From a bacterium (GTDB lineage Bacteria > Patescibacteriota > Patescibacteriia > JACPHY01): 64,000 bases of DNA. The position numbers and the translations under genes are program-made. The DNA lies in contig JAUSKM010000015.1 in assembly GCA_030646955.1 (NCBI GenBank), forward strand, positions 285 through 64,284, written 5' to 3'. The notes under the pieces are model-generated. The model ran no database searches. It had not been told where the DNA came from and saw only the letters and a program-made list of their open reading frames with translations. Below, in pieces: positions 11,542-45,656 of this stretch; the stretch's first letter is position 1; each line of letters starts with the position of its first letter.

Positions 11542-12378
11542 TCAATCACCTGAGAGAAACTCGGCCCATGCCGCACACTCCTCGAGGTCGTCGGTATCGA
11601 TGAGGCGGTCGCAATCGTTGTCGACGTGATCATTGCACACCTCTTCATTGCACGCGGGATCGCAGGTGAGCAACGCTACAGGAGCATCACACTCCCAAAA
11701 CCCCTCCTGCAACAATCCGTCGTTCTCCCATATGCAGATCACGCCGATCCAATCACCGTCGTCCGTCACCCCGTCGCAGTCGTTGTCGACGCCATCGCAG
11801 ATTTCCATGGGACATGCTGCGGTCGAATCGAACACACAATCGCCATCATCCCAATCCACCATGCCATCGCAGTCGTTGTCGGCACGATCATGACACAACT
11901 CGACATTCTCCTCACAGGACGGACCTCCAGCGATAGGGAGCCCGCATGAGAGCGTTGTGTGTGGCACGCCCTCTGTACCGGGAGCCCCGCACGTACGCAG
12001 GCCTGCATTCACTGCATCCCAGTACTCCATGTAACACGCCTGCTCTTCCCAAGGACCATTGTCCGTGATACCGTCGCAGTCGTTATCGATACTATCGCAG
12101 CGCTCCTCAGAGCACTCGGTCGCGTCATCGCCGGAATCATCATCCGCGCTGACGGCATCATCGTCGGATGTGTCGCCGTCGTCGTTTGCGGTTGCTTGGG
12201 AGTCATCGTCGGTGATGACTCCATCGTCGTCCGCTGCCATCGTATCGTCATCGACGGAAGTTGCGACGCTATCATCGTCTCCAACCGGAAAACTTCCTTC
12301 CGGCATATCGCTCCCGCACGCCTGCACTGCCGTTATGAGCGCCGTGATCATGGAAAGAACCAACCATACGGTACGCAT
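11542..12378 (-). CDS. Asp/Cys-rich lipoprotein with four DNDCDG-type putative metal-binding repeats
   Basis: MRTVWLVLSMITALITAVQACG has a signal peptide plus lipobox. An acidic low-complexity region follows, then CDSIDNDCDGITD, CHDRADNDCDGMVD, CDGVDNDCDGVTD and CNDHVDNDCDRLID. There is a strong SD (aaggaggtgcgg) upstream of the ATG at 12378. Confidence 0.75.
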   Translation of the reverse strand: MRTVWLVLSMITALITAVQACGSDMPEGSFPVGDDDSVATSVDDDTMAADDDGVITDDDSQATANDDGDTSDDDAVSADDDSGDDATECSEERCDSIDNDCDGITDNGPWEEQACYMEYWDAVNAGLRTCGAPGTEGVPHTTLSCGLPIAGGPSCEENVELCHDRADNDCDGMVDWDDGDCVFDSTAACPMEICDGVDNDCDGVTDDGDWIGVICIWENDGLLQEGFWECDAPVALLTCDPACNEEVCNDHVDNDCDRLIDTDDLEECAAWAEFLSGD

Positions 12379-12404
12379 CCGCACCTCCTTCTTTGTTCCC
12401 CGCA

Positions 12405-12433
12405 AATATACATCCAAGCAGCCTCTCCGTCAA
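12405..12433 (-). promoter_or_regulatory. Sigma-70-like promoter for the lipoprotein gene
   Basis: Minus strand: TTGACG (12433-12428), a 17-nt spacer, then TATATT (12410-12405). This is about 27 nt upstream of the start codon. Confidence 0.5.
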
Positions 12434-31863: not shown

Positions 31864-33195
31864 TCAAGCAGGGACGCCACGCACGTTCCGGACGATTGCC
31901 AACGGCGTCTGCTCGCTGCTCTGACCCAGTGGATTGTCTCGAAATACTGCACGAATACGCGCACGATCCACGCCCTCGGACACGCCCAACACCTCGACGC
32001 CAAGATCATTAGCATCGATAATCGCAATGCCAACACCAATACGTCGCGCGAGGCGCTCCGCAACGGCATCGGGGTCCTTGGGCCCCAGGACGGCATACGC
32101 GTTGTACGGCGGGAGCGTGTACGAGCACGGCCCATCAATCGCATTCACGCTGTGCCCTGCCAAACGGTAGAAAAGCCCGGAGATACCAAATGGTTTTGTG
32201 ACGGCCGCGACGGCTGCGGCGAGCAGGATGCGCAACGTGCCGGCTTCGCGCAGCGCAAGTTCCATCGTCTCCGGCCGCGCAAGCCCGATGCCGGCAGGAT
32301 TCTTGGTGACGAACCGCACGAGCTGTGTTGCCAGCCACCGCGGACGAATCTCGTCCACGCGGTATGCACGCCCCTGTGTGATCGCCACCACGCGCTCGGA
32401 AATCGCCAGCACGTCATCCGGCCGCAGGTACTCCGTGGTGTGCTTCGTCACCAGCTCCAAGAGATCATCGTGCGGCAGCACGACGTTTGTCCTCACCGGA
32501 TAGCGCGCAAGACGCTCCTCCTGATCCCGCACGTAGCTCACCACAAGCTCCTTGCCCGCGTTTGGCACGAACGGAGGATCTGCGTCACCCGCAAAATGCG
32601 TGCGACGAACCGCGTCCAATGCCGCATCCAACAGCCGCTCGGCATCGCTGCCAAGCGAAGCAATGATGGTGCGTCCCCAGCGGCTGTACCCATAGAGCGC
32701 GCGCAGGGCGATGCGACGCCCCACCGATGGCGTCGCAGCATGATCGCGCGCGTTATCAATGATGTCCGCTGCCTTCACCATTCGAACGGCCCGCGGCGCA
32801 TCCAAAAACGCGCGTGCTTGCGACCACTTGGCATCGCGCCCTGGCGTCCAGGTGAGCCAACGCACCGCACCTGCAACCGCGTCGCCGAATGCGGTAGCGA
32901 TATCGTCTACCCGAACGCCGCAATCCTCCACCACGTCATGGAGCAGCGCGGCAGCAATCGCATCAGCATCGCGCACGCGGAATTCCTCCAACAACGATAC
33001 CGCGACCCGCATGGGATGAATGATGTACGGAATCGCCGGATTCCCTTTCCGCGTCTGTCCCGCATGCGCATCACGAGCAAAGGACAACGCCGTGCGAATA
33101 CGGTGTTGCTCTGCTTCGTTGCATGACGCAAGCGCCCGATCAAATCGAGCTTCCTGGGCAGCACAATCAACAAATTCCTTCCACGACACGGGCAT
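31864..33195 (-). CDS. Fusion of a RelA/SpoT-type HD hydrolase domain and a CofE (F420-0:gamma-glutamyl ligase)-like domain
   Basis: HD domain: AHAGQTRKGNPAIPYIIHPMRVAVSLL...AALLHDVVEDCGV...FGDAVAGAV. C-terminal half: DDVLAISERVVAITQGRAY...VGIAIIDANDLG...NPLGQSSEQTPLAIV. The track start at 33219 is GTG; the first ATG is at 33195. Confidence 0.7.
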   Translation of the reverse strand: MPVSWKEFVDCAAQEARFDRALASCNEAEQHRIRTALSFARDAHAGQTRKGNPAIPYIIHPMRVAVSLLEEFRVRDADAIAAALLHDVVEDCGVRVDDIATAFGDAVAGAVRWLTWTPGRDAKWSQARAFLDAPRAVRMVKAADIIDNARDHAATPSVGRRIALRALYGYSRWGRTIIASLGSDAERLLDAALDAVRRTHFAGDADPPFVPNAGKELVVSYVRDQEERLARYPVRTNVVLPHDDLLELVTKHTTEYLRPDDVLAISERVVAITQGRAYRVDEIRPRWLATQLVRFVTKNPAGIGLARPETMELALREAGTLRILLAAAVAAVTKPFGISGLFYRLAGHSVNAIDGPCSYTLPPYNAYAVLGPKDPDAVAERLARRIGVGIAIIDANDLGVEVLGVSEGVDRARIRAVFRDNPLGQSSEQTPLAIVRNVRGVPA

Positions 33196-33272
33196 ACATA
33201 TTCTAGTGTAGCACGACACTGCACTTGACGAACTCCCAGAAGTCGCTACGCTGGTAATGCATACACACTGCT

Positions 33273-36503: not shown

Positions 36504-37664
36504 TCACAATCTCCCCTCTCCCACCGGGCTGTAGCCATTGCGAACCTCCTCGCCATCGGTGTAGCCGTCGCCGTCACTGTCCCGGCTGTTCAGGTCACTG
36601 CCGTACAACGCCTCGCGAACGTCGGAAAGACCGTCGGCATCGGCATCGGAACCTGCGGGCAATGCGTGCGACGGCTGCGGTTGCACGCCGAAGAGCTGCT
36701 CGATGACATCGTCGAGCGGGAGCGCGCTCGGAGGCGGCGCCATGGTCACGGGAACGTTCCAATCTGACCACTGGATGTCTGCGGTGCCGGTGAGGCGGAT
36801 GTTCGTTGCGTCCTCGCGCACCGCGAACGGGAACTGCGCGCGCACGAACGCACCCGCGCCCGTGAGCCACACATCGATCGTAATGTCCCGCACCCGCGGA
36901 ACGACTGCGGTCTGGAGCAATGCGGCCAGCGTCTCCCCACTCTCGCTTCCTGCGAGGAGCGCGATGAGCGCAGCGAGCGCTTGCTCGTTGATCGTCGTGC
37001 GGAGGTGCCGCGCGCGGACGCCGTCTACGCGCTCGCGCCCGAGATCCTCCTGGAACATGAGCAGTGGGTGCGTCCGCGCTTGTTCACGCAGCGCCGCGGC
37101 GCGACTCGCGTCGTACGGTGCGCTGGGTGCTGCCGCGCCTCCTATGCGCTGCTGGAGCCGCGCAAAGGTTGCACTATCCGCCACTACCCACCGCTCGCCG
37201 AGCATGCCCTGGACGATGCCCGCGCCGAGCGCCACGGCAGGCGCCGATGTCCCGCCGAGGAACGAAAAATCCCGCAGTCGGAGGTACTGCATCTCGCCAA
37301 TCGCTCGCGTGTCGAGCAGGAAGCCCAGCGTCGCATCACCGATCGCGCCCGCTGCCGTGATCGTCCCATCGCTTGCACGCGCGCCATCGTGCTCGCCGCG
37401 CCGTCCGTCATACGTCAGATGGAGCGACGCGGATTGCTCGTCCTGCTCCCACGCGATGCGCACGTCCGCGCGTGTGCGCACGGACACCGCCTCGACGGCC
37501 TGCACCCACGCACGATCGAGCGCCACCTGCGGATGCCGCGCCACCGCGCTCCACGGCCCCGCGCCCATCACCGCCGCGACCGTGCCAGCGGCTGCCGCGA
37601 CAATAATCGCAACAACTGCGGGCACGATGCCTCTTGGTTCCGTACCGTGTCGAAGCATAGTCAT
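36504..37664 (-). CDS. Membrane-anchored hypothetical protein with a C-terminal TSP3-like calcium-binding repeat
   Basis: N-terminal anchor VPAVVAIIVAAAAGTVAAV. The C-terminus is GSDADADGLSDVREALYGSDLNSRDSDGDGYTDGEE (a DxDxDG pattern). Confidence 0.6.
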   Translation of the reverse strand: MTMLRHGTEPRGIVPAVVAIIVAAAAGTVAAVMGAGPWSAVARHPQVALDRAWVQAVEAVSVRTRADVRIAWEQDEQSASLHLTYDGRRGEHDGARASDGTITAAGAIGDATLGFLLDTRAIGEMQYLRLRDFSFLGGTSAPAVALGAGIVQGMLGERWVVADSATFARLQQRIGGAAAPSAPYDASRAAALREQARTHPLLMFQEDLGRERVDGVRARHLRTTINEQALAALIALLAGSESGETLAALLQTAVVPRVRDITIDVWLTGAGAFVRAQFPFAVREDATNIRLTGTADIQWSDWNVPVTMAPPPSALPLDDVIEQLFGVQPQPSHALPAGSDADADGLSDVREALYGSDLNSRDSDGDGYTDGEEVRNGYSPVGEGRL

Positions 37665-37990
37665 GATGTCAATGCATTCGCTTCAATCGTGCACCATTCG
37701 CCCTGCTCCGCATCCCATCGAAATGCGCGAAGGAACGACACGAGATCATTGGTATCGTACATTTTTTGCACTGCCGTTTCTCCACCGATGCGCCGCGATC
37801 CCAACGCATGCTCACCGATGGTGCGCGGCTTGGTGACGTATTCCAACCGCACTCGTCCCATCGGCGCCTCAAATTCTACGAACGCCACCGTGCTCAATGG
37901 CACGCCCTCCAGTTCGGTTCTGCCTTCCTCTGCAATCACGAACCGCTCGGCAATGCGATCCAGGAGATCCGCCCATTGGGATGGTTGCAT
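37661..37990 (-). CDS. Small hypothetical cytoplasmic protein
   Basis: MQPSQWADLLDRIAERFVIAEEGRTELEGVPLSTVAFVEFEAPMGRVRLEYV.... Its stop overlaps the next gene's start by 4 nt. No motif recognised. Confidence 0.45.
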   Translation of the reverse strand: MQPSQWADLLDRIAERFVIAEEGRTELEGVPLSTVAFVEFEAPMGRVRLEYVTKPRTIGEHALGSRRIGGETAVQKMYDTNDLVSFLRAFRWDAEQGEWCTIEANALTS

Positions 37991-38009: not shown

Positions 38010-41000
38010 TTACGGTTCCTCGCGTGATACTGCCGCTGCCGGCGCCTCGGCAATACCGGGTGATACCGTCATATCCTGCGGAGCCGTCGTCCCCGCATCG
38101 CGGAGTGCCCCGGTGTGCACACTCGGGTGCAGCGCGAGATCCACGCCAACAATGCCCTCGCGTTTGCGCATGTCCAGCGTACTCGAGCGCGCCGGGTCAT
38201 ACCCCCCCTTCTGCGCCGTCACATAGTAGACGCTCTTGCCCGCAAGGAACTGGTAACGGCCGTATCGGTCGGTCGCCGCGGTCTCCAGAAGTTTTCCAAA
38301 CTCAATATCGAACAGACGGACAACCGCGAGGTGGAGCGGGTGCTTAGAAACCACATCCCGAATCGCACCCCAGGATTTCACGGCGCGCGCGCGGATAGCA
38401 AGTCGCCGGAAGAGCACGTAGAAGAGGAGGTTGATGCCCAGCACGGCACCGATGAGCGGACGCGGCGAAATGGCGAAGGATGCGATGGAGAGCACGAGGC
38501 CGACATCCGAAACCGCGCCACTGATGATGCGCCCGTAGTGGTTGCGCAGGACATGCTTGTCGAGCGTCATCGTCCGCTCCGCTTTCGCGTCCAGCGGGAT
38601 ACTCTTGATGACGAACCCGCCACCCTCCGGCACCGCGAACGGCTCGCCGTAGGTGCAATCGAGGAAGTCGCCATCCTCGCGGCGCCCCGCAAGGCGCGTG
38701 GAGGGGTATGCGTACTGCGGATGGCGCACGTCCAATCGGTACGATCCTGCTTGCTTCACCGCAAAGTTGTACCGCCCCAGGTGGTCCGTCACCTCGGTGG
38801 CAACCACGCGACCCGTCGCAACATCCAGAAGCCGGACGGTAGCGAGATCCACCGGCCGCTTCGAGAGCGCGCCATACACCGTCCCCCACGCGGTACGCTT
38901 GCGTCGCGAAAAGAGGCGGCTTGGCGAGAGAAGGAAGCCAACGAGGTACTGCGCGTACGCGAGGAGCTGAAACCCGTGCACGGCGGTCGCGGTGTTCGTC
39001 GCGACGGCAACCACCACCGCTGGCGCAACGACACGCTCCGTCGTTGTCTCAACGGCAGGGTTGTCCAGCACGCGTTCCTGCACCGCCACGGCGGTCTTCT
39101 CCGCGGCCTTCGCCGTTGCCTTCGCGGTGGTCTGCGTTGCACTGACGACGGCCTTCGCGGTCGCGGTGGTTGCCTCGGCAACCACCGTCGCGGTACGCGC
39201 CGCGATGCCTTCCGTTTCCTCGGTGCGATCAAACGCGCTCGCGCAGTCAGGATCCGCTGGGTAGTCCAGGAGCGCGTCGCCATCGTTATCCATACCATCT
39301 GCGCATGCGGCTGGCGCGATCGCAAACGGGAGCACCTGCGGGAGCGGCGAGACGTTCCCTGCGGAATCGCGCGCGGCGACGCGGATGGTGGAGCCGCCTG
39401 GTGGGAGTGCGAGCGTTGTACGGAACTCCCATGCGACACTCGTCACGCGGTGCGTAAAGGTTGCCGATTCTCCGCCGATGGTAATGAGGATCGCATCAAC
39501 ATCTCCTGCCGATGCCGCAGGGATGATACCGGCGAGCTGAATCAGCACGTCGAACGCGTCCGCGCGCGATGCCGCAATCCCCTGCTTCGTTGTCCGAACC
39601 TCGCGAACCTCCGGCGTTCCTGGCGGCGTGCGATCCACCACAAACGGAGCAGCCGCCGTCAGCGTCAGCCCTCCAGCGACAACCGCATCGCCGCGCACCT
39701 CATGTGCTCCTTCTGCCACGATGCCGGGGAGGAGTGCCGTGAAACCGCCGAGCGCGTCCGTCTCCACGGAAGCAATGGGGGTACCGTCGAGCGCAATACG
39801 TACCATGGTCTCCGATGGTCCGCGCCCACTCACCACAACGGTTTGCGCATTGGTTGCAGAGCCCGCGATGGGTGCCGTGAGCGTGAGATCGCGCAAGGGC
39901 GGCGATACCATACGCACCTGCGCAGCAGTAGATTGCCCGCTCGTTGTCACACTGATGCGATGCGATCCCTCGCTCACATTGCGAATGGTCAACGAGAAGC
40001 TCTGATCCGCAGCCGCAGTGAGATTCCAATGCGTCCGATCGTCAAGCGAGACCGTCACCGATGCATCGGATGATGCCGCACCACGAATGACGAGATCACC
40101 CGCAGGCAACACCGCGCCATCAACAGGCGCGAGGAGCGCGAACATCGTCGCCGCGTTTGCGCGCGTGACGCCGGGCGCGGGGGACGCCGTGCCCGGCGCT
40201 GCTGACGTGCCCGGCGCAGCAACGTCTGGAATCGGGACCACCGGCGGTGCTCCCGGTTGCTGCGGAGGCGGCGTTGGCTGCGGCGTAACAGTAAGCGGTG
40301 CGCCAACGGGCTCCGCCGGAGGCGCCTCCTGCGGCGGCACTGGTTGTTGCGGCGGCGCTGTGTCCGGCGGAGGAGCAAGCGGCCCAATGACGCTGAACGT
40401 GAGCGGCGCGAGTGCAACCGTACGCGGCGCCACATCCGCAAGGGGCACATATGCCATAGTCGGCGCAACCGTGAGGGATGCGCCCGCAGCTGCCGTTGTC
40501 CGGAAATCAATGCCGAACACCGCCGTTGCACCGATGCCGAGCGTGGCAAGTCGGAATGTCGCAACACCCGGCGCAGTGGCGCCAACATCCGCAGCATCCG
40601 CGTCGCCTGCATCCGATGCACGGACGCCGTTGACTACGAGCGTGCCCGGCATTGGCACGGCACCTGCCGGGATAGGGATAGAAACAACAAGATTGCGCAC
40701 GATGCCGGTCCCCGCATGCGCAACACGCACCACGACGGGAATGCGATCATCCGTACGAACATCCGGAGATGCGAGCGTGGTCTGCACCTGCGCGGACGCA
40801 TCGCCGCGATCGCTGCCGACGGTGGTACTCACAATGGTCGTCGCGGAGCACGCTGATGGCACGCCAACGTGATTGCGCGCCTCGGCACAAAACGCGTAGG
40901 TATGATCCGGCTCAAGGCCAATGACAAGCACGCGGCCGCGCTCCCACTCTGCGAACGTCCGCCATACGGCATCAGGCGTACCAAAAAGCCCGTCTGCAGC

Positions 41001-42851
41001 AACGTACCGGCCAGATTGTTTATCCTTGATCGCATACCGAATGTCGTCCGCGTTCCCGCTGCCAGCACCAAACGCAATGACCGCGCTCGATCGCGTCACA
41101 TCTGATGCGGTCGCTGCTCCCGGCACGACGGCAAGCGTCACCGCACAGGGATACGAATCGGAAACTGGCGAGATCTTCGTGCCGCTCAACGCGACAACGC
41201 GCCGGCCGCAGTACTCGGTGTCCGGCGCGAGCGCACGTTCCTCCACGAATGTTGCCGCGGGATCGTCCGTCCGCGCCAGCTCCTTCCCATCCGCGTCACG
41301 AATCGCAAACCCCGATGCCGCACCCCCGCTATTCGCAAATGGCCATCGGATGCTCGTGGCGGCGGGCACCGGCGTTGCAATCGTTGGCGCCCCGATGGTG
41401 TCATCTACCGTGTACGCAATACGCAACGCGGTGAGGCGCGGATCCGCCTCGCCGTTCGTTGAAATGAGCGTTGCGCGCCACCGCAGCGATGAACCCGTTA
41501 CCGTGAACGTCCATACCGTCCCGGGCGTGACCGGACCCTCCCACCGTGCGGCACCATCCGCTGCGCTCACCTCGTAGGTGATTGCCGCGCCTGCCGGCAC
41601 GGTCGCCGTGGGCGTGAGCGTCGCGGTAAGGATGCGATGCGGAGTGTCATCAACGGGGTTCGCGGTCAACGCGATACCAGGGGATGCGAGGCCGGACATC
41701 AGGACGTTCGCGCCGTCCGCCCGTCCCGCAATGACGCTCCCGTGCGCGGGGTATGTTGGCGCAATGCCAAACGCGGACGGCGCACTGCCAACCCATCCGA
41801 GGGCAAGCGCGGTGGCAGTCCCGCCCTCCACGCGGGCAACGCCGCCACTCCTCCCAACCAGGAGCTGCCCGCCGGGGCCGTATGCAATCGCGCTGGCGTC
41901 CTCGCTGCGATACGCGATACTCCACCCAGCGCCGCCGTCCGTTGTCTCGTACACGCCATCAAGGAACAGTGCGGCAACGCGCCCCGTACTGCTCGCGGCA
42001 AGCGCGGTCGCATACGGCACGGAGATGCCAGCCGGATTGCGCAGCGTCCACGTGGTACCAGCGTCCACGGAACGGTACAGGCCATCGCGCAATGTCGAAA
42101 GGAAGACCGTATGGTTCGTCTGGTACGCAGGATCCACCGCAACGGCGCGGATGTCACCGTTCACGCGCACTGCATCAGACACGCCGGAGGAAATATCGAA
42201 CCATGATACGCCGCTATCTTGGCTTCGCAGCACGCGATCGAACGCCGCGACAAATACCGTGCGGTCTGTCGCGTACGCCGGCGAGAATGCGATACCAAAT
42301 CCATTCACGCTCCCGTCTACCTGCAGCCACGTCACACCGCCATCAATCGTACGCCAAAGGCCGCTCCCGTTTGTCATGGCAAACGCGATCCCATCGCCGG
42401 AGAATGTTGGGGAAACCGCAACCGCAACCGCCTCGCTGCCCGTCGCAAGCATGCGCAGCCACGTTGATCCTCCGTCCGTGGTGCGATACACGCCGTCGCT
42501 TGCAGCGATGAATGCCGTACGACTTGCGGCGTACTCTGGCGTATACGCGACACCGCTGACGCGGCGGCCATCAAACGCGGCGGCGGTCACCCAGACATTC
42601 CCGTTGTCAACCGCGCGACGCAGACGTACGTCCCCTGCTGCACTGTCCCAAGACGCACTCCAACCCGAAGCGAGCGCAGCGGGCACCGAGGAAAATTCCT
42701 CGACGTACACGCGCTCTGTTGCCGCATCAATTTTGGTGACGACGGCACCCGCAAGAACGAGAAGGAGCGCGGCGACTCCAAAGCCAAGCGCATGGTGACG
42801 CGGGAACAATGCAGCCATAGGAACAACAAACAGCCGAGCACGCAGCTCCAT
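38010..42851 (-). CDS. Giant multidomain surface protein (BNR/Asp-box propeller, FN3/Ig-like domains, Pro-rich linker, DNDGD motif, TM segments, 2x carboxypeptidase-regulatory-like domains)
   Basis: About 1613 aa from the ATG at 42851. Five Asp-box repeats: TTDGGSTW, TIDGGVTW, SQDSGVSW, SVDAGTTW, TTDGGAGW. Pro-rich stretch PPPDTAPPQQPVPPQEAPP. CADGMDNDGDALLDYPADPDC. Two segments like VRLLDVATGRVVATEVTDHLGRYNF, separated by TM helices. Confidence 0.8.
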   Translation of the reverse strand: MELRARLFVVPMAALFPRHHALGFGVAALLLVLAGAVVTKIDAATERVYVEEFSSVPAALASGWSASWDSAAGDVRLRRAVDNGNVWVTAAAFDGRRVSGVAYTPEYAASRTAFIAASDGVYRTTDGGSTWLRMLATGSEAVAVAVSPTFSGDGIAFAMTNGSGLWRTIDGGVTWLQVDGSVNGFGIAFSPAYATDRTVFVAAFDRVLRSQDSGVSWFDISSGVSDAVRVNGDIRAVAVDPAYQTNHTVFLSTLRDGLYRSVDAGTTWTLRNPAGISVPYATALAASSTGRVAALFLDGVYETTDGGAGWSIAYRSEDASAIAYGPGGQLLVGRSGGVARVEGGTATALALGWVGSAPSAFGIAPTYPAHGSVIAGRADGANVLMSGLASPGIALTANPVDDTPHRILTATLTPTATVPAGAAITYEVSAADGAARWEGPVTPGTVWTFTVTGSSLRWRATLISTNGEADPRLTALRIAYTVDDTIGAPTIATPVPAATSIRWPFANSGGAASGFAIRDADGKELARTDDPAATFVEERALAPDTEYCGRRVVALSGTKISPVSDSYPCAVTLAVVPGAATASDVTRSSAVIAFGAGSGNADDIRYAIKDKQSGRYVAADGLFGTPDAVWRTFAEWERGRVLVIGLEPDHTYAFCAEARNHVGVPSACSATTIVSTTVGSDRGDASAQVQTTLASPDVRTDDRIPVVVRVAHAGTGIVRNLVVSIPIPAGAVPMPGTLVVNGVRASDAGDADAADVGATAPGVATFRLATLGIGATAVFGIDFRTTAAAGASLTVAPTMAYVPLADVAPRTVALAPLTFSVIGPLAPPPDTAPPQQPVPPQEAPPAEPVGAPLTVTPQPTPPPQQPGAPPVVPIPDVAAPGTSAAPGTASPAPGVTRANAATMFALLAPVDGAVLPAGDLVIRGAASSDASVTVSLDDRTHWNLTAAADQSFSLTIRNVSEGSHRISVTTSGQSTAAQVRMVSPPLRDLTLTAPIAGSATNAQTVVVSGRGPSETMVRIALDGTPIASVETDALGGFTALLPGIVAEGAHEVRGDAVVAGGLTLTAAAPFVVDRTPPGTPEVREVRTTKQGIAASRADAFDVLIQLAGIIPAASAGDVDAILITIGGESATFTHRVTSVAWEFRTTLALPPGGSTIRVAARDSAGNVSPLPQVLPFAIAPAACADGMDNDGDALLDYPADPDCASAFDRTEETEGIAARTATVVAEATTATAKAVVSATQTTAKATAKAAEKTAVAVQERVLDNPAVETTTERVVAPAVVVAVATNTATAVHGFQLLAYAQYLVGFLLSPSRLFSRRKRTAWGTVYGALSKRPVDLATVRLLDVATGRVVATEVTDHLGRYNFAVKQAGSYRLDVRHPQYAYPSTRLAGRREDGDFLDCTYGEPFAVPEGGGFVIKSIPLDAKAERTMTLDKHVLRNHYGRIISGAVSDVGLVLSIASFAISPRPLIGAVLGINLLFYVLFRRLAIRARAVKSWGAIRDVVSKHPLHLAVVRLFDIEFGKLLETAATDRYGRYQFLAGKSVYYVTAQKGGYDPARSSTLDMRKREGIVGVDLALHPSVHTGALRDAGTTAPQDMTVSPGIAEAPAAAVSREEP

Positions 42852-43002
42852 TGCCGATGCGTGCGCGAACGGCTCACGGAACAATCTTTTGTTAGTATAC
42901 CACGCAAATTTCTCTTGCGCCCACAGGGTACTGGGCGGTACAATGGCAATGTGCATGCGTGACACTGCACGGGGCACGCTCCCGCGCACCACGACTCCAT
43001 CC

Positions 43003-43758
43003 ATGTTCAATCATCAGGATTTTTTCACACTCGAGCGCCGTGCAAAGCAGCAACGCGTTGCCGCGATTGCAGGCAGCGCGCTCGCCGCGATCCTGCTCGT
43101 GACCTTCGCAACCGCGACCGACGCGTCCCGGGCTGTGGATAGCGCATCGCTCGCGCTGGTGTCCGCGGATTGCGCGCCGGTCGTACGCGGCCGCACCATC
43201 CACGTCGCCTGGGAGACCACCGTCGCAGCGGATGAAAATTCCGTCATGGTTGGATCGGACGACATGTTCGGCACCACCGTCGCCGCAACGCCGGGGACGC
43301 GCCACGCAGCAGTCATCGCAGACCTCCCCAGCGGCGCGACCGTCCACTATCGCGTCACATCGCGACGTACTGCCACGGAGGAGACCGCCGCATCCGGTAC
43401 CTGCGTGGTCACGGTGGATGGCCTCGACACCGCCGCGCCACGCTTCACCGATGTCATTGTGGACAGTGTTGTCACCGATGCGGCCGCGGTCCACTTCGCA
43501 ACCAACGAACCCGCCGCGCTCCTCGTTACCGTGACATCCTTTGATGCAGACGGCGCCATCGTCACCGCATCGGAGACCACCGCCACCCAGGATATCGTGT
43601 CGCCTCCCGCCCACCGCATCGTCCTCTCCGGCCTCACCCCCGGCACGCGCTACACCGTCCGCGCAGACGCCATCGACAACGCTGGCAACTCCACCACCTT
43701 GACACCCCCCATCGAATTCCGTACGCTGCATGTGCCCGCCCCCGTAGCTCAGTGGTAG
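43003..43758 (+). CDS. Membrane-anchored protein with two FN3-like domains
   Basis: MFNHQDFFTLERRAKQQRVAAIAGSALAAILLVTFA provides the anchor. Two beta-sandwich-like repeats end in GATVHYRVTS and GTRYTVRADAIDNAGNS. The ORF has no stop until 43758, which is 21 nt inside tRNA-Lys. Confidence 0.6.
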   Translation: MFNHQDFFTLERRAKQQRVAAIAGSALAAILLVTFATATDASRAVDSASLALVSADCAPVVRGRTIHVAWETTVAADENSVMVGSDDMFGTTVAATPGTRHAAVIADLPSGATVHYRVTSRRTATEETAASGTCVVTVDGLDTAAPRFTDVIVDSVVTDAAAVHFATNEPAALLVTVTSFDADGAIVTASETTATQDIVSPPAHRIVLSGLTPGTRYTVRADAIDNAGNSTTLTPPIEFRTLHVPAPVAQW

Positions 43759-43830: not shown

Positions 43831-43872
43831 CAACAAAACACCCACCCCAGCAATGGGGTGGGTGTTTTGTTG
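43831..43872. terminator. Bidirectional rho-independent terminator (tRNA-Lys / murG)
   Basis: caacaaaacacccacccc agcaat ggggtgggtgttttgttg is an 18-bp perfect stem, followed by gttttt. Confidence 0.85.
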
Positions 43873-43884
43873 GTTTTTCGCCCG

Positions 43885-44952
43885 TCACTGCGCTGCTTGC
43901 ATGACCACGCGCGCAAGCGTGGCGGCGGCGTTGTCGGGAAACATGGTGGCGATGGAACGACCGAGTTTGGCGCGACGGTTGGCATCCTCGAGAAGCGCAT
44001 GGATGCGTTGTGTGAAGACGCCGGGCGCGACGAGGGCCCGCGAATTCCAAACCTCCGCAGCACCGCGCTCGTTGAGTTGCTGCGCGTTGTCTTCCTGGTG
44101 AGTGGATGGCATGGGCACCAGCACCGTCGGTTTACCCAGGCACCCCAGCTCCGCGATCGTCCCCATGCCCGCACGACTCACCACAAGATCCGCAGCAGCG
44201 AGCGCGGGAATCATATCGTCGGCGAGAAACTCAAATTGTCGATAGGATCCGGCCCACTCCCCCTTCCCAGCGGGAGTGGGGGGAACATTGCCCTGCTTCC
44301 CTTTCCCCGTCACATGAATCACGTCGGCAATCGCCGTCAGCTCGGGCAATGCGGCCCAGACAAGGTGGTTGAGCGCCATTGCGCCGGTGCCACCGCCAAG
44401 AATGAGGAGTACGTGTCGATTTCCGGAGAATCCAAAATGCCGCTGTGCTTCGCGCACATCCGCCACGCACGCATCGCGCACGGCGGCACGCACCGGCACG
44501 CCGATGCCCTCAGCGCCAAATGTCGCCGTCCGCGCGGACGAAAACCGCGCCACAAGCGTGTTGGCCAATGATGGACGCGCGTCCAGTTGGTGGATGACGA
44601 TCGGGATGCGCAGCACGCGCGCCGCAAGCATCACCGGCACCTGCACGTATGACCCCGCGCCCACCACCGTATCTGGCCGCTCCCGACGCAGAAACGCAAG
44701 TGCGCGCACGAACGCCCATGCAATTGCAAACGCATCCACGATATTCCGCCCATCCAGGTACCGTCGCAGCTTGCCTGCCGGAAACGCGATGAACCGGATC
44801 CCGTCGCGCTCCACCAACACCCGCTCCGGCCCCCGCCGCGTCCCAATCCACATCATCACCGCCCGCGGCCGCACATGCCGAATCTCCTCCGCGACAGCCA
44901 AGAGCGGGGTCACCGATCCCAATGTTCCGCCGCCGGTGAAGAGGATGGTCAT
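43885..44952 (-). CDS. murG: UDP-GlcNAc--lipid I GlcNAc transferase MurG
   Basis: MTILFTGGGTLGSVTPLLAVAEE glycine-rich loop, a GT28 two-domain layout, and C-terminal RAGMGTIAEL. Confidence 0.9.
   Translation of the reverse strand: MTILFTGGGTLGSVTPLLAVAEEIRHVRPRAVMMWIGTRRGPERVLVERDGIRFIAFPAGKLRRYLDGRNIVDAFAIAWAFVRALAFLRRERPDTVVGAGSYVQVPVMLAARVLRIPIVIHQLDARPSLANTLVARFSSARTATFGAEGIGVPVRAAVRDACVADVREAQRHFGFSGNRHVLLILGGGTGAMALNHLVWAALPELTAIADVIHVTGKGKQGNVPPTPAGKGEWAGSYRQFEFLADDMIPALAAADLVVSRAGMGTIAELGCLGKPTVLVPMPSTHQEDNAQQLNERGAAEVWNSRALVAPGVFTQRIHALLEDANRRAKLGRSIATMFPDNAAATLARVVMQAAQ
44254..44284. repeat. G/C-tract hairpin inside murG
   Basis: cccactccc ccttcccagc gggagtggg has a 9-bp perfect stem. 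Translated as PPTPAGKGEWAG. Confidence 0.6.
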
Positions 44953-45656
44953 GCGTGGGCGTGAAGATACATACTCCGAGCATCGCTCGGCAGCCGCTCG
45001 ATGGCGGAGCGAAGCATGGTGCGGGGCATCGCTGCGGCGTGCAGACGGAGGAATGTTTCGAGGGCGGCCGTGGAACGCTTCCCGGCCTCACGCAGCATCC
45101 AACCGGTTGCTTTGTGGATGAGGTCATGCGGATCGCGTAGGAGGATCTGCGCGATGCGAAACGTGTCCGTCAACTGGCCATGCCGAATGAACGCGTACGT
45201 CGCGACGATGGCGATGCGCCGCTCCCAGAGCTGCGGCGAGCGTGCGAGACGGGCCAGCACACCGCGCGGACGACGCAGGAGGTATGCGCCGACGATGTGG
45301 TACGCAGAAGTGTCCACGAGATCCCAGTTGTTCACGCGCACGGTATTGTGGAGGTAACACTGGTACACCGCGCGCTGCTCCCGCGCATCGCCGCCGTTGA
45401 ACCGCGCGATGAGCAGCAGGAGCGCCACGAAACGATCCTCATGGGAGCGCGATTGCAGCAACTGCTCCGCGTGCGTGAACGAGCATGCGTGGTACTGCTT
45501 CGCAATCGTGCGCATCGTTGGGACAGTAACGCCAAGAAATTGATCCCCCTGTGCGTATTCCCCTGCTCCGGTCTTAAAAAACCGCGCACACGCTGCCGCA
45601 CGCGACGGATCCGCCGCACTCCGTATCGCGCGTTTGATCGTGGGAAGAGAGGCCAT
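44949..45656 (-). CDS. DNA alkylation repair protein (AlkD-like HEAT-repeat family)
   Basis: RAAACARFFKTGAGEYAQGDQFLGVTVPTMRTIAKQY...NNWDLVDTSAYHIVG...WERRIAIVATYAFI matches the AlkD/PF08713 pattern. Its stop overlaps the murG ATG (ATGA). Confidence 0.8.
   Translation of the reverse strand: MASLPTIKRAIRSAADPSRAAACARFFKTGAGEYAQGDQFLGVTVPTMRTIAKQYHACSFTHAEQLLQSRSHEDRFVALLLLIARFNGGDAREQRAVYQCYLHNTVRVNNWDLVDTSAYHIVGAYLLRRPRGVLARLARSPQLWERRIAIVATYAFIRHGQLTDTFRIAQILLRDPHDLIHKATGWMLREAGKRSTAALETFLRLHAAAMPRTMLRSAIERLPSDARSMYLHAHA

Follow-up and report, generated by a model that had tools for sequence, protein, structure and literature searches.

A stretch of 64,000 nucleotides from a Patescibacteria assembly (contig JAUSKM010000015.1, positions 285 to 64,284, assembly GCA_030646955.1), referred to below as the window, carries the gene for a 1613-amino-acid (aa) surface protein, here called the giant, in the midst of genes of the division and cell wall (dcw) cluster. 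Reading along the minus strand, one meets ftsW, an AlkD-like gene, murG, the giant, a gene for a 109-aa protein, a gene for a protein with a TSP3 repeat, an ftsI-type penicillin-binding protein gene and a Mur ligase gene. Read from its N-terminus, the giant comprises a putative export signal, an Asp-box propeller, a series of beta-sandwiches with a Pro-rich spacer among them, an acidic Cys-bracketed motif, a helical stalk and a C-terminal module in which hydrophobic helices alternate with two sandwich domains. Taken by itself, the giant is an adhesin-like surface protein of many domains, restricted to its lineage and unremarkable for its phylum. The main finding is rather the C-terminal module, a single unit of ~325 residues found at the end of thousands of surface proteins that have little else in common, partners of the Pam pilus and pilin-like heads among them. 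Patescibacteria may be a large share of bacterial diversity, their cultivated members live attached to other cells, and little is understood of how their surface apparatus is assembled and kept in place.

Gene model and export signal

The minus-strand open reading frame 38010..43010 is open throughout, and the gene is placed within it at 38010..42851, with the ATG at 42851 and the stop codon at 38010-38012. The product is identical to a protein of an NCBI metagenome-assembled genome (Q7T01_01425, P0001), a hypothetical protein in a record labelled unclassified 'bacterium', for which the start was set 35 codons upstream (MHIAIV, window 42852-42956), giving 1648 aa. This longer start would leave only 46 bp to the divergent gene for a fibronectin type III (FN3) protein; the start at 42851 leaves 151 bp, and the corresponding spacer in orthologous loci measures 99-160 bp. 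Five full-length orthologs are available (42-58% identity to the giant), and in the alignment of the six sequences all five start within a few residues of the hydrophobic core. Because of these ortholog N-termini and spacer lengths, the shorter start is preferred, and either the ATG at 42851 or a Met 11 codons further in (aa 12) is favoured as the true one.

The first 45 residues (aa 1-45, 42717..42851, minus strand) have a hydrophobic core at aa 23-40, with a Kyte-Doolittle peak of 2.41, and a VDAA/IDAA site. Across the orthologs a short basic n-region and an h-region are followed by (K/R)(V/I/L)DAA, and the giant's N-terminus would accordingly be read as a Sec signal peptide or signal anchor.

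Anatomy of the C-terminal module

The module (aa 1255-1580, 38112..39089, minus strand) was delimited by profile search and ortholog conservation and defines a family. No long region of the giant is better conserved: identity among the six orthologs is 55-70% here vs 24-60% in the ectodomain regions. It begins with an acidic lead-in (VLDNPAVE..ER), which is followed by ~41 uncharged residues opening with an invariant AP, then by RRKR and by WG. The uncharged stretch (aa 1274-1314, 38910..39032, minus strand) holds two hydrophobic segments, H1 'VVAPAVVVAVATNTATAV' and H2 'FQLLAYAQYLVGFLLSPSRLF', and the RRKR behind them occupies aa 1316-1319. The first CarboxypepD_reg domain (D1, aa 1322-1421, 38589..38888, minus strand) starts at WG and ends in IPLD, with a PF13620 match at aa 1322-1381. 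After a K/R-rich segment come two helices joined by SPRP (H3-SPRP-H4, aa 1443-1481, 38409..38525, minus strand), with K/R-rich segments on either side, then RRLAIRAR..K, another WG and the second CarboxypepD_reg domain (D2, aa 1494-1576, 38124..38372, minus strand), which carries the second PF13620 stretch and a bMG3 match at 1497-1550; a 33-residue tail then leads to the stop codon. Local motif variants exist in the giant's copy, such as DCTYGE for DLYHGE. Polar residues are conserved within the helices, an Asn in H1 and a Gln/Asn in H4.

The two CarboxypepD_reg-like segments with adjoining hydrophobic helices had already been noticed in a first-pass annotation made from the letters of the window, and both parts of that observation hold: PF13620 matches the giant in two stretches (E 1e-11, 45.5 bits vs a cutoff of 32.3), and the hydrophobic regions are those at aa 1274-1314 and 1443-1481. 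In an AlphaFold2 (AF2) model of the module, the predicted local distance difference test (pLDDT) reaches 85-92 in D1 and ~90 in D2 and falls to 45-75 in the helices, with an overall predicted template modelling score (pTM) of 0.38. Foldseek matches D1 and D2 to the transthyretin-like domain of carboxypeptidase D (5aq0; target-normalised template modelling score, TMt, 0.82 for D2, root-mean-square deviation 2.1) and to CnaB/CnaB2, SpaA and SdrD B. Both domains are modelled as seven-stranded transthyretin-like sandwiches. The fold search of the PDB with the module returned isolated sandwiches and no structure that pairs helices with sandwiches.

No single well-known family accounts for the module, since Pfam and NCBIfam see only the two sandwiches within it. 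Specifically, neither Pfam (2025) nor NCBIfam (June 2026) has a model for the whole module, no description of it was found in the literature on Patescibacteria with CarboxypepD_reg or PF13620, and the proteins that carry it are currently named 'carboxypeptidase regulatory-like domain-containing' or 'hypothetical'.

Size, distribution and partners of the family

A profile was built from 14 aligned modules, and its layout repeats what is seen in the giant: an acidic lead-in with AP, ~40 uncharged residues, RRKRK-WG, a first sandwich ending in NIPLD, a K/R-rich segment, an H3-SP-H4 hairpin, RR..K-WG and a second sandwich. Counted as cluster representatives, the search found 12375 matches at E<=1e-3, 5634 at E<=1e-10 and 2360 at E<=1e-30; the best 150 matches all span the full profile (E ~1e-100), and the module-bearing proteins among the matches range from 330 to 6300 aa. 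The first-pass annotation had called the giant's C-terminus an unusual multi-pass anchor; the alternation of helices and sandwiches is borne out, and the 2360 representatives at E<=1e-30 leave it unusual merely in being unannotated. Nearly all of these 2360 have the module at the C-terminal end of a signal-peptide protein of Patescibacteria. The module represents a very large, uncurated and previously undescribed anchor family, apparently specific to Patescibacteria.

Family-wide statistics were taken over a set of 161 members, and a hidden Markov model of this set finds the giant with E 1.7e-118 (aa 1277-1631 of the long open reading frame), its single occurrence in the window. Fewer than 20 residues lie beyond the module in 108 of the 161. 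The giant, with its signal peptide and a module that ends 33 residues before the stop, fits the position typical of the family. The N-termini of members are mostly classic signal peptides, and several carry GFTLxE prepilin motifs. A word-indexed search with the module returned fragments of giants, proteins of ~520 aa in which a prepilin motif and a GspG-like head precede the module, and members whose heads are of other types. Nine proteins of ~520-700 aa (P0083, P0084, P0086, P0088, P0113, P0138, P0200, P0210 and P0220) combine a GFTLxE prepilin N-terminus with a GspG-like head and the anchor module. Such prepilin-headed proteins would be tethered at both ends and could serve as the base or terminator of a pilus.

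Where tails do extend beyond the module, they can be disordered and rich in Pro, Glu and Lys (P0094, P0096, P0116, P0117, P0121, P0133, P0145, P0151, P0158, P0165, P0188 and others). Recurrent motifs in such tails are (I/V)PWELQxLQK, D(V/F)E(H/S)AHP and a terminal (N/S)IFG, none of which is present in the giant's short tail; by their sequence they look like docking sites for a partner. Free-standing module proteins were considered as well and rejected, as the cases of 328-346 aa that were looked up are fragments on 1.4-kb contigs.

A scan of species-representative genomes with five closer family members and two peptide patterns gave 183 sites, a number that undercounts the family. Among the best 80 of these sites, the named records are mostly Magasanik-, Falkow-, Uhr- and Buchananbacteria, Parcubacteria and 'Patescibacteria group', and about one third of the 80 are labelled 'uncultured Gammaproteobacteria' (e.g. 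L012, L004, L016 and L017). One of the latter (L012, OZ246416.1, 'uncultured Gammaproteobacteria bacterium') is a complete chromosome of 886 kb, and these labels are probably placeholders or mislabels for Patescibacteria. A few sites are filed under Binatia, Methylomirabilis or Vicinamibacterales, perhaps because the contigs were mis-binned.

The Pam system is a CPR (Candidate Phyla Radiation)-specific donor-strand-exchange pilus with membrane-anchored chaperones, in which PamR, with two FnIII domains, is the proposed terminator or anchor that tethers the fibre by one transmembrane (TM) helix (Troman et al., 2026, bioRxiv 10.64898/2026.03.03.709456); the preprint makes no mention of the module. 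When the neighbours of 83 module loci were clustered, 48 of the loci had, directly upstream of the module gene, a gene for a ~300-aa protein that carries a signal peptide and has a TM helix at its C-terminus, and 40 had, one gene further upstream, a PamT-like protein of ~237 aa of the Pam-pilin type, which matches the NCBIfam model CPR_Pam_pilin_C above its cutoff (E 7e-44). In genomes of the Magasanik- and Falkowbacteria type, a three-gene operon is found at ~40 loci (L033:1-6000, L004, L013, L016, L020 among them), consisting of the PamT-like pilin, the ~300-aa protein and a module protein of ~900-1300 aa. The ~300-aa protein of this operon, a candidate chaperone of the PamC/D type, has no family match.

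PamR and the module proteins have in common that they are specific to the CPR, are exported by Sec, contain beta-sandwiches and use their C-terminus to fasten a surface structure to the cytoplasmic membrane. Many module genes come directly behind those for a Pam-type pilin and the TM-anchored protein of ~300 aa. They differ in the tether, which is a single C-terminal TM helix behind two FnIII domains in PamR and a combination of about four hydrophobic helices with two transthyretin-like domains in the module. The giant itself scores 12.2 bits against the NCBIfam PamR model (cutoff 300), no Pam pilin adjoins it, and none of its neighbours (the FN3, 109-aa and TSP3 proteins) matches a Pam model. 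The gene order at the other loci suggests that Pam-like fibres outside Saccharimonadia and Microgenomatia may be anchored by the module. Taken over the family, the module closes three kinds of protein, namely adhesin-like giants, pilin-like heads and, in Pam-like operons, the large subunit, and what these share is the anchoring of an external structure.

The ectodomain

Five Asp-boxes of the form S/T-x-D-x-G-x-x-W lie at aa 124, 168, 210, 261 and 303, with a spacing of ~45 residues; 5000 shuffles of the giant gave a mean of 0.016 boxes and a maximum of 1. The first-pass count of five boxes in the first ~400 aa is confirmed. They belong to a seven-bladed BNR/Asp-box beta-propeller (aa ~66-396, 41664..42656, minus strand), supported by Pfam, NCBIfam, PDB, AF2 and Foldseek. 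Sortilin-Vps10 (PF15902, PSII_BNR clan) passes the Pfam gathering threshold marginally (E 1.9e-8, 34.0 bits vs a cutoff of 33), the best NCBIfam match is the F510_1955 family glycosylhydrolase model (NF045728, E 1e-15) at 57.7 bits, below its cutoff of 175, and Ycf48 is also returned by the NCBIfam scan. A PDB sequence search with the whole giant gave only weak propeller matches (Ycf48, 8am5, E 0.0018; glycoside hydrolase family 74, GH74). The AF2 model of aa 46-500, made from 20 aligned sequences, has ~28 strands (pLDDT 89, pTM 0.77) and shows the propeller followed by a beta-sandwich. Searched with Foldseek, it resembles seven-bladed propellers generally (TMt up to 0.77), its specific relatives being GH74 halves and Ycf48: the matches 5oj3, 6p2k and 7kn8 have E ~1e-11 at 13-19% identity, and the head aligns to half of GH74 chains (TMt 0.25-0.34).

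The sandwich packed behind the propeller (aa ~400-485, 41397..41654, minus strand; model positions 361-438, pLDDT ~90) is 49-60% conserved among orthologs; it follows the single propeller of the giant, which has no second tandem propeller of the GH74 type. The seven-bladed Asp-box propeller is what the giant's head shares with Ycf48/HCF136 and with single propellers of GH74 xyloglucanases; unlike GH74 proteins, the giant has one propeller rather than a pair, and continues into a stalk of >1000 residues and a membrane anchor.

Behind the head, several beta-sandwich-like segments had been proposed from the letters, and domain searches agree. Two FN3-like modules with approximate boundaries (aa ~488-680, 40812..41390, minus strand) give a weak Pfam fn3 match (E 0.085 at aa 577-663); PF00041 is recorded for the orthologs P0003-P0006, and W and C positions are conserved in the orthologs. 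A variable Ig/DUF11-like module (aa ~690-830, 40362..40784, minus strand), assigned from a DUF11 match in ortholog P0002, is the least conserved region (24-42%) and is deleted in P0005. It is followed by a linker rich in Pro, Gln and Ala (aa ~831-900, 40152..40361, minus strand), evident on direct reading and previously described as a Pro-rich spacer, whose length differs between orthologs. Three Ig-like sandwiches come next (aa ~903-1178, 39318..40145, minus strand), with a Glucodextran_B-like match at 988-1039 and Big_13 at 1114-1169 (30.1 bits vs a cutoff of 27); fn3, Glucodextran_B and other sandwich families are sub-threshold in the giant and stronger in orthologs (e.g. P0002).

The acidic Cys-bracketed motif CADGMDNDGDALLDYPADPDC (aa 1183-1203, 39243..39305, minus strand) matches NCBIfam acid_disulf_rpt (NF033662) with E 4.7e-6 and 26.2 bits, below the cutoff of 41. 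C1183, D1188/1190/1192 and C1203 are invariant in the six orthologs, and the pattern reads C-x4-DNDxD-x3-D-x-x-D-P-D-C. The acidic D-N-D-x-D core between Cys residues is shared with the MopE-like CxDxxDNDCDGxxD repeats described by this family, from which the giant differs in having one copy and two Cys, the outer pair, in place of the four of the repeat. Elsewhere in the window, a lipoprotein-like protein (11542..12417, minus strand) has a long Asp-rich low-complexity N-terminal part and four C..DNDCDG..D..C motifs of the MopE-like metal-binding type; no Pfam or NCBIfam family is reported for it. The first-pass annotation heard an echo of these motifs in the giant's DNDGD: the four are indeed there, and the giant's C...DNDGD...C, which keeps the outer Cys pair only, is a reduced relative of them. 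An Ala/Thr/Lys-rich helical stalk (aa ~1210-1254, 39090..39224, minus strand; an AF2 helix of low confidence) then leads into the acidic VLDNPxVE segment of the module.

The claim that the bulk of the protein is extracytoplasmic is supported by the signal peptide with its conserved VDAA, the acidic ectodomain (isoelectric point, pI, 4.8), the BNR propeller, the Ig/FN3 modules and the Cys-bracketed acidic motif. An S-layer identity was considered and rejected, as the Pfam and NCBIfam scans of the giant found no S-layer homology (SLH) or S-layer family. Nor does an LPXTG-type motif ([LI]P.[TSA][GNA]) occur anywhere in the giant. The likeness to sortase-linked LPXTG stalks of Gram-positive bacteria (SdrD B, SpaA, CnaB pilins) lies in the long stalk of Ig-, transthyretin- or CnaB-like sandwiches and the distal binding head; the giant differs from them in having an integral membrane module instead of a covalent wall link, and in that its matching sandwiches are predicted to be cytoplasmic.

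Gene order around the giant

The first-pass annotation described the giant as interrupting the dcw cluster. The position is real, but the murG unit ends at a terminator and the giant heads a new block that is co-directional with ftsI. More specifically, a very strong terminator hairpin with a 19-bp stem (43831..43872) lies between murG and the convergent FN3 gene and splits the dcw genes into two transcription units, that of murG and that of the giant. The divergent FN3 partner, also noticed at first pass, is a TM-anchored protein of 251 aa with FN3 / Pur_ac_phosph_N-like domains (43003..43758, plus strand), and it recurs in orthologous loci where the contig reaches: a counterpart exists in L001, L002, L003, L084 and L086, and L085 has no called FN3 gene.

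Downstream of the giant by 19 nt lies the gene for the 109-aa protein (37661..37990, minus strand), which is lineage-specific and soluble, without signal peptide or TM helix, and has no Pfam, NCBIfam or PDB relative; of its seven homolog clusters, at least five are on contigs that also carry a giant or a module. The start of the next gene overlaps it by 4 nt. This gene (36504..37664, minus strand) encodes an N-terminally membrane-anchored protein of 386 aa whose core weakly resembles SCO4651 lipoproteins and whose C-terminus bears a bacterial TSP3 (Ca-binding) repeat, and it precedes ftsI, in the usual place of ftsL, a position conserved in L002, L003, L084 and L085. No strong terminator lies between the giant and ftsI, and co-transcription of the two is possible. 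The setting as a whole recurs in the five orthologous loci examined, with three exceptions: the FN3 gene is not called in L085, the Uhrbacteria locus L001 lacks the 109-aa gene, and the contig of L086 ends after the 109-aa gene, before ftsI.

Membrane topology and function

The charges around the hydrophobic segments are distributed very unevenly. As means over the 161 members, K+R and D+E number 2.35 and 3.70 before H1, 0.02 and 0.03 in the H1-H2 turn, 5.15 and 0.32 after H2, 5.28 and 1.69 before H3, 0.35 and 0.01 in the H3-H4 loop, and 4.21 and 0.20 after H4; K/R occupancy at aa 1316-1319 is 92-99%. The positive-inside rule would put the regions that follow H2, precede H3 and follow H4 in the cytoplasm; with the sandwiches and tail then inside as well, the first uncharged stretch would have to make an odd number of passes through the membrane. 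Three crossings, with both sandwiches and the tail in the cytoplasm, are on this basis fairly probable. The median pI across the family (4.5 for ectodomains, 6.9 for D1, 9.0 for D2), a K/R in the middle of H2 in 35% of members, and the disordered charged tails with short conserved motifs beyond D2 are all consistent with this placement. The first-pass annotation did not state on which side the sandwiches lie; the charge pattern puts them in the cytoplasm, and the module would then work in a different way. The earlier reading, partly supported, turns out largely right and too narrow.

With moderate confidence, the giant is read here as a Sec-exported surface fibre, adhesin-like or glycan-binding, of an Uhrbacteria-like Patescibacterium, held by a CPR-wide anchor module with cytoplasmic sandwiches. 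Its distal head would be the seven-bladed propeller with the attached sandwich, borne by a stalk of about seven Ig/FN3-type sandwiches, the ~70-residue Pro-rich spacer, the acidic Cys-bracketed knot (probably Ca-binding) and the Ala/Thr-rich helix, which could carry the head well past the wall. The module would hold the protein in the cytoplasmic membrane, and Patescibacteria would reuse it on many surface proteins. The first uncharged stretch would cross once and be stopped by RRKR, leaving D1 in the cytoplasm; H3-SPRP-H4 would dip out and back, leaving D2 and the short tail there as well. Mechanically stable, D1 and D2 could serve, with the basic collars at the inner membrane surface, as stoppers or as places for docking, and so keep a load-bearing fibre from being pulled out of the membrane without a covalent link to the wall. 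The head is most likely a binding module for a glycan or partner surface rather than a cleaving one, a view taken because it has one propeller whereas GH74 enzymes need two. Attachment to a host or partner, as suggested at first pass, is plausible. A broader parallel is offered by the cytadhesins of Mollicutes (e.g. P1 of Mycoplasma pneumoniae), large adhesins of small host-dependent bacteria with a C-terminal membrane segment and a cytoplasmic, often Pro-rich tail thought to be tied to internal structures; this likeness is drawn from general knowledge. Cytadhesins span the membrane with one TM helix and lack beta-sandwiches on the cytoplasmic side, and no relation to them by sequence or fold was found, though no test aimed at it was made.

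Several points weigh against this picture. The topology draws on the positive-inside rule and on composition, and the stopper role on mechanical reasoning. Where proteins have been characterised, their transthyretin-like, CnaB or CarboxypepD_reg domains usually lie outside the cytoplasm, and propellers of the giant's clan are also found in glycoside hydrolases. The hydrophobic moment (0.24 for H2 vs 0.23 for H3) does not separate H2 from true TM helices and, being uninformative, was not used as topology evidence. AF2 draws the first uncharged stretch, of ~41 residues, as a two-helix hairpin at low confidence (pLDDT 43-58), and a full hairpin there would put both sandwiches outside. Under such an arrangement the module would be extracytoplasmic save for two tight cytoplasmic turns, H1-H2 and H3-H4 being full or re-entrant hairpins, D1 and D2 membrane-proximal spacers under the wall, and the basic collars a means of binding anionic lipids or wall polymers. 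The second hairpin predicted by AF2 fits this, as does the likeness of units 1 and 2 (each ~40 uncharged residues, a basic cluster, WG and a sandwich), which looks like a duplication and suggests equal topology; so does the sandwich fold, which is characteristic of the surface stalks of Gram-positive bacteria (SdrD B, SpaA and CnaB, for example). It would, however, place ~15 K/R per protein outside and almost none inside, reversing the positive-inside rule, in a pattern that holds across the 161 members; the RRKRK right behind H2 is a classic stop-transfer signal, and D1 and D2 are neutral or basic whereas the ectodomains are strongly acidic. On balance an extracytoplasmic module is rather unlikely. 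With the sandwiches inside, the module could also be more than an anchor, namely a Patescibacteria-wide transmembrane coupling device in which D1, D2 and, in many members, the long motif-bearing tails mechanically lock surface fibres, pilin-like heads and giants to internal partners, in this lineage the 109-aa protein and products of the ftsI operon among them, and which could signal, as a bacterial counterpart of integrin-type outside-in systems; we regard this as unlikely.

Other readings concern the giant rather than the module. The propeller might be a glycoside hydrolase (GH74-, sialidase- or F510_1955-like) acting on wall or host glycans and co-expressed with ftsI for remodelling at division, as the top NCBIfam match, the GH74 xyloglucanases among the top Foldseek matches, and the co-directional block with ftsI and the Mur ligase (recurrent where orthologous contigs reach ftsI) could be taken to indicate. 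The F510_1955 score nevertheless falls far below its cutoff, a single propeller is what the non-catalytic Ycf48 has, and a long stalk with a Pro-rich spacer fits reach and not catalysis within the wall. GH74 enzymes have two tandem seven-bladed propellers with the cleft between them (2cn2, 6p2k), and an enzymatic giant is accordingly judged quite improbable. Slightly harder still to credit is a structural protein of the envelope or divisome, in which the module's cytoplasmic domains would, with the 109-aa and TSP3 proteins, link a structure outside the cell with wall synthesis at the septum. The gene order from the giant through the 109-aa and TSP3 proteins to ftsI and the Mur ligase does recur, apart from L001 and L086, at 42-58% identity of the giants, the genes are tightly spaced, and the 109-aa protein both lacks export features and keeps company with giants or modules. 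Synteny inside one narrow lineage may, on the other hand, be inherited and not functional; the Uhrbacteria ortholog locus does without the small gene, other module proteins stand in unrelated contexts such as pilus operons, and no divisome-type domain was detected in the giant, the 109-aa protein or the TSP3 protein.

For genome annotation, the module deserves a family model of its own, and its profile is a handle by which the surface proteome of Patescibacteria can be found in one search. It is equally a handle on the anchoring of fibres in cells that have no outer membrane and, apparently, no linkage by sortase, and on a possible coupling between contacts at the surface and the cytoplasm. 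If the favoured topology is true, the cytoplasmic transthyretin-like domains would be an unusual use of a normally extracytoplasmic fold.

Additional observations

Two further open reading frames near the giant, 36703..37836 on the plus strand and 42892..43731 on the minus strand, were rejected as antisense shadows; their translations are rich in Arg, Ser and Ala and have no matches. Between ftsW and murG lies a DNA alkylation repair gene (AlkD-like, PF08713, E 2e-60; 44949-45656, minus strand), and in the Uhrbacteria locus L001 murG directly follows ftsW with no such gene between them. A gene downstream of the Mur ligase (31864-33219, minus strand) encodes an HD_4 domain fused to an F420-0:gamma-glutamyl ligase-like domain, and the same fusion occurs at the same relative position in L001.

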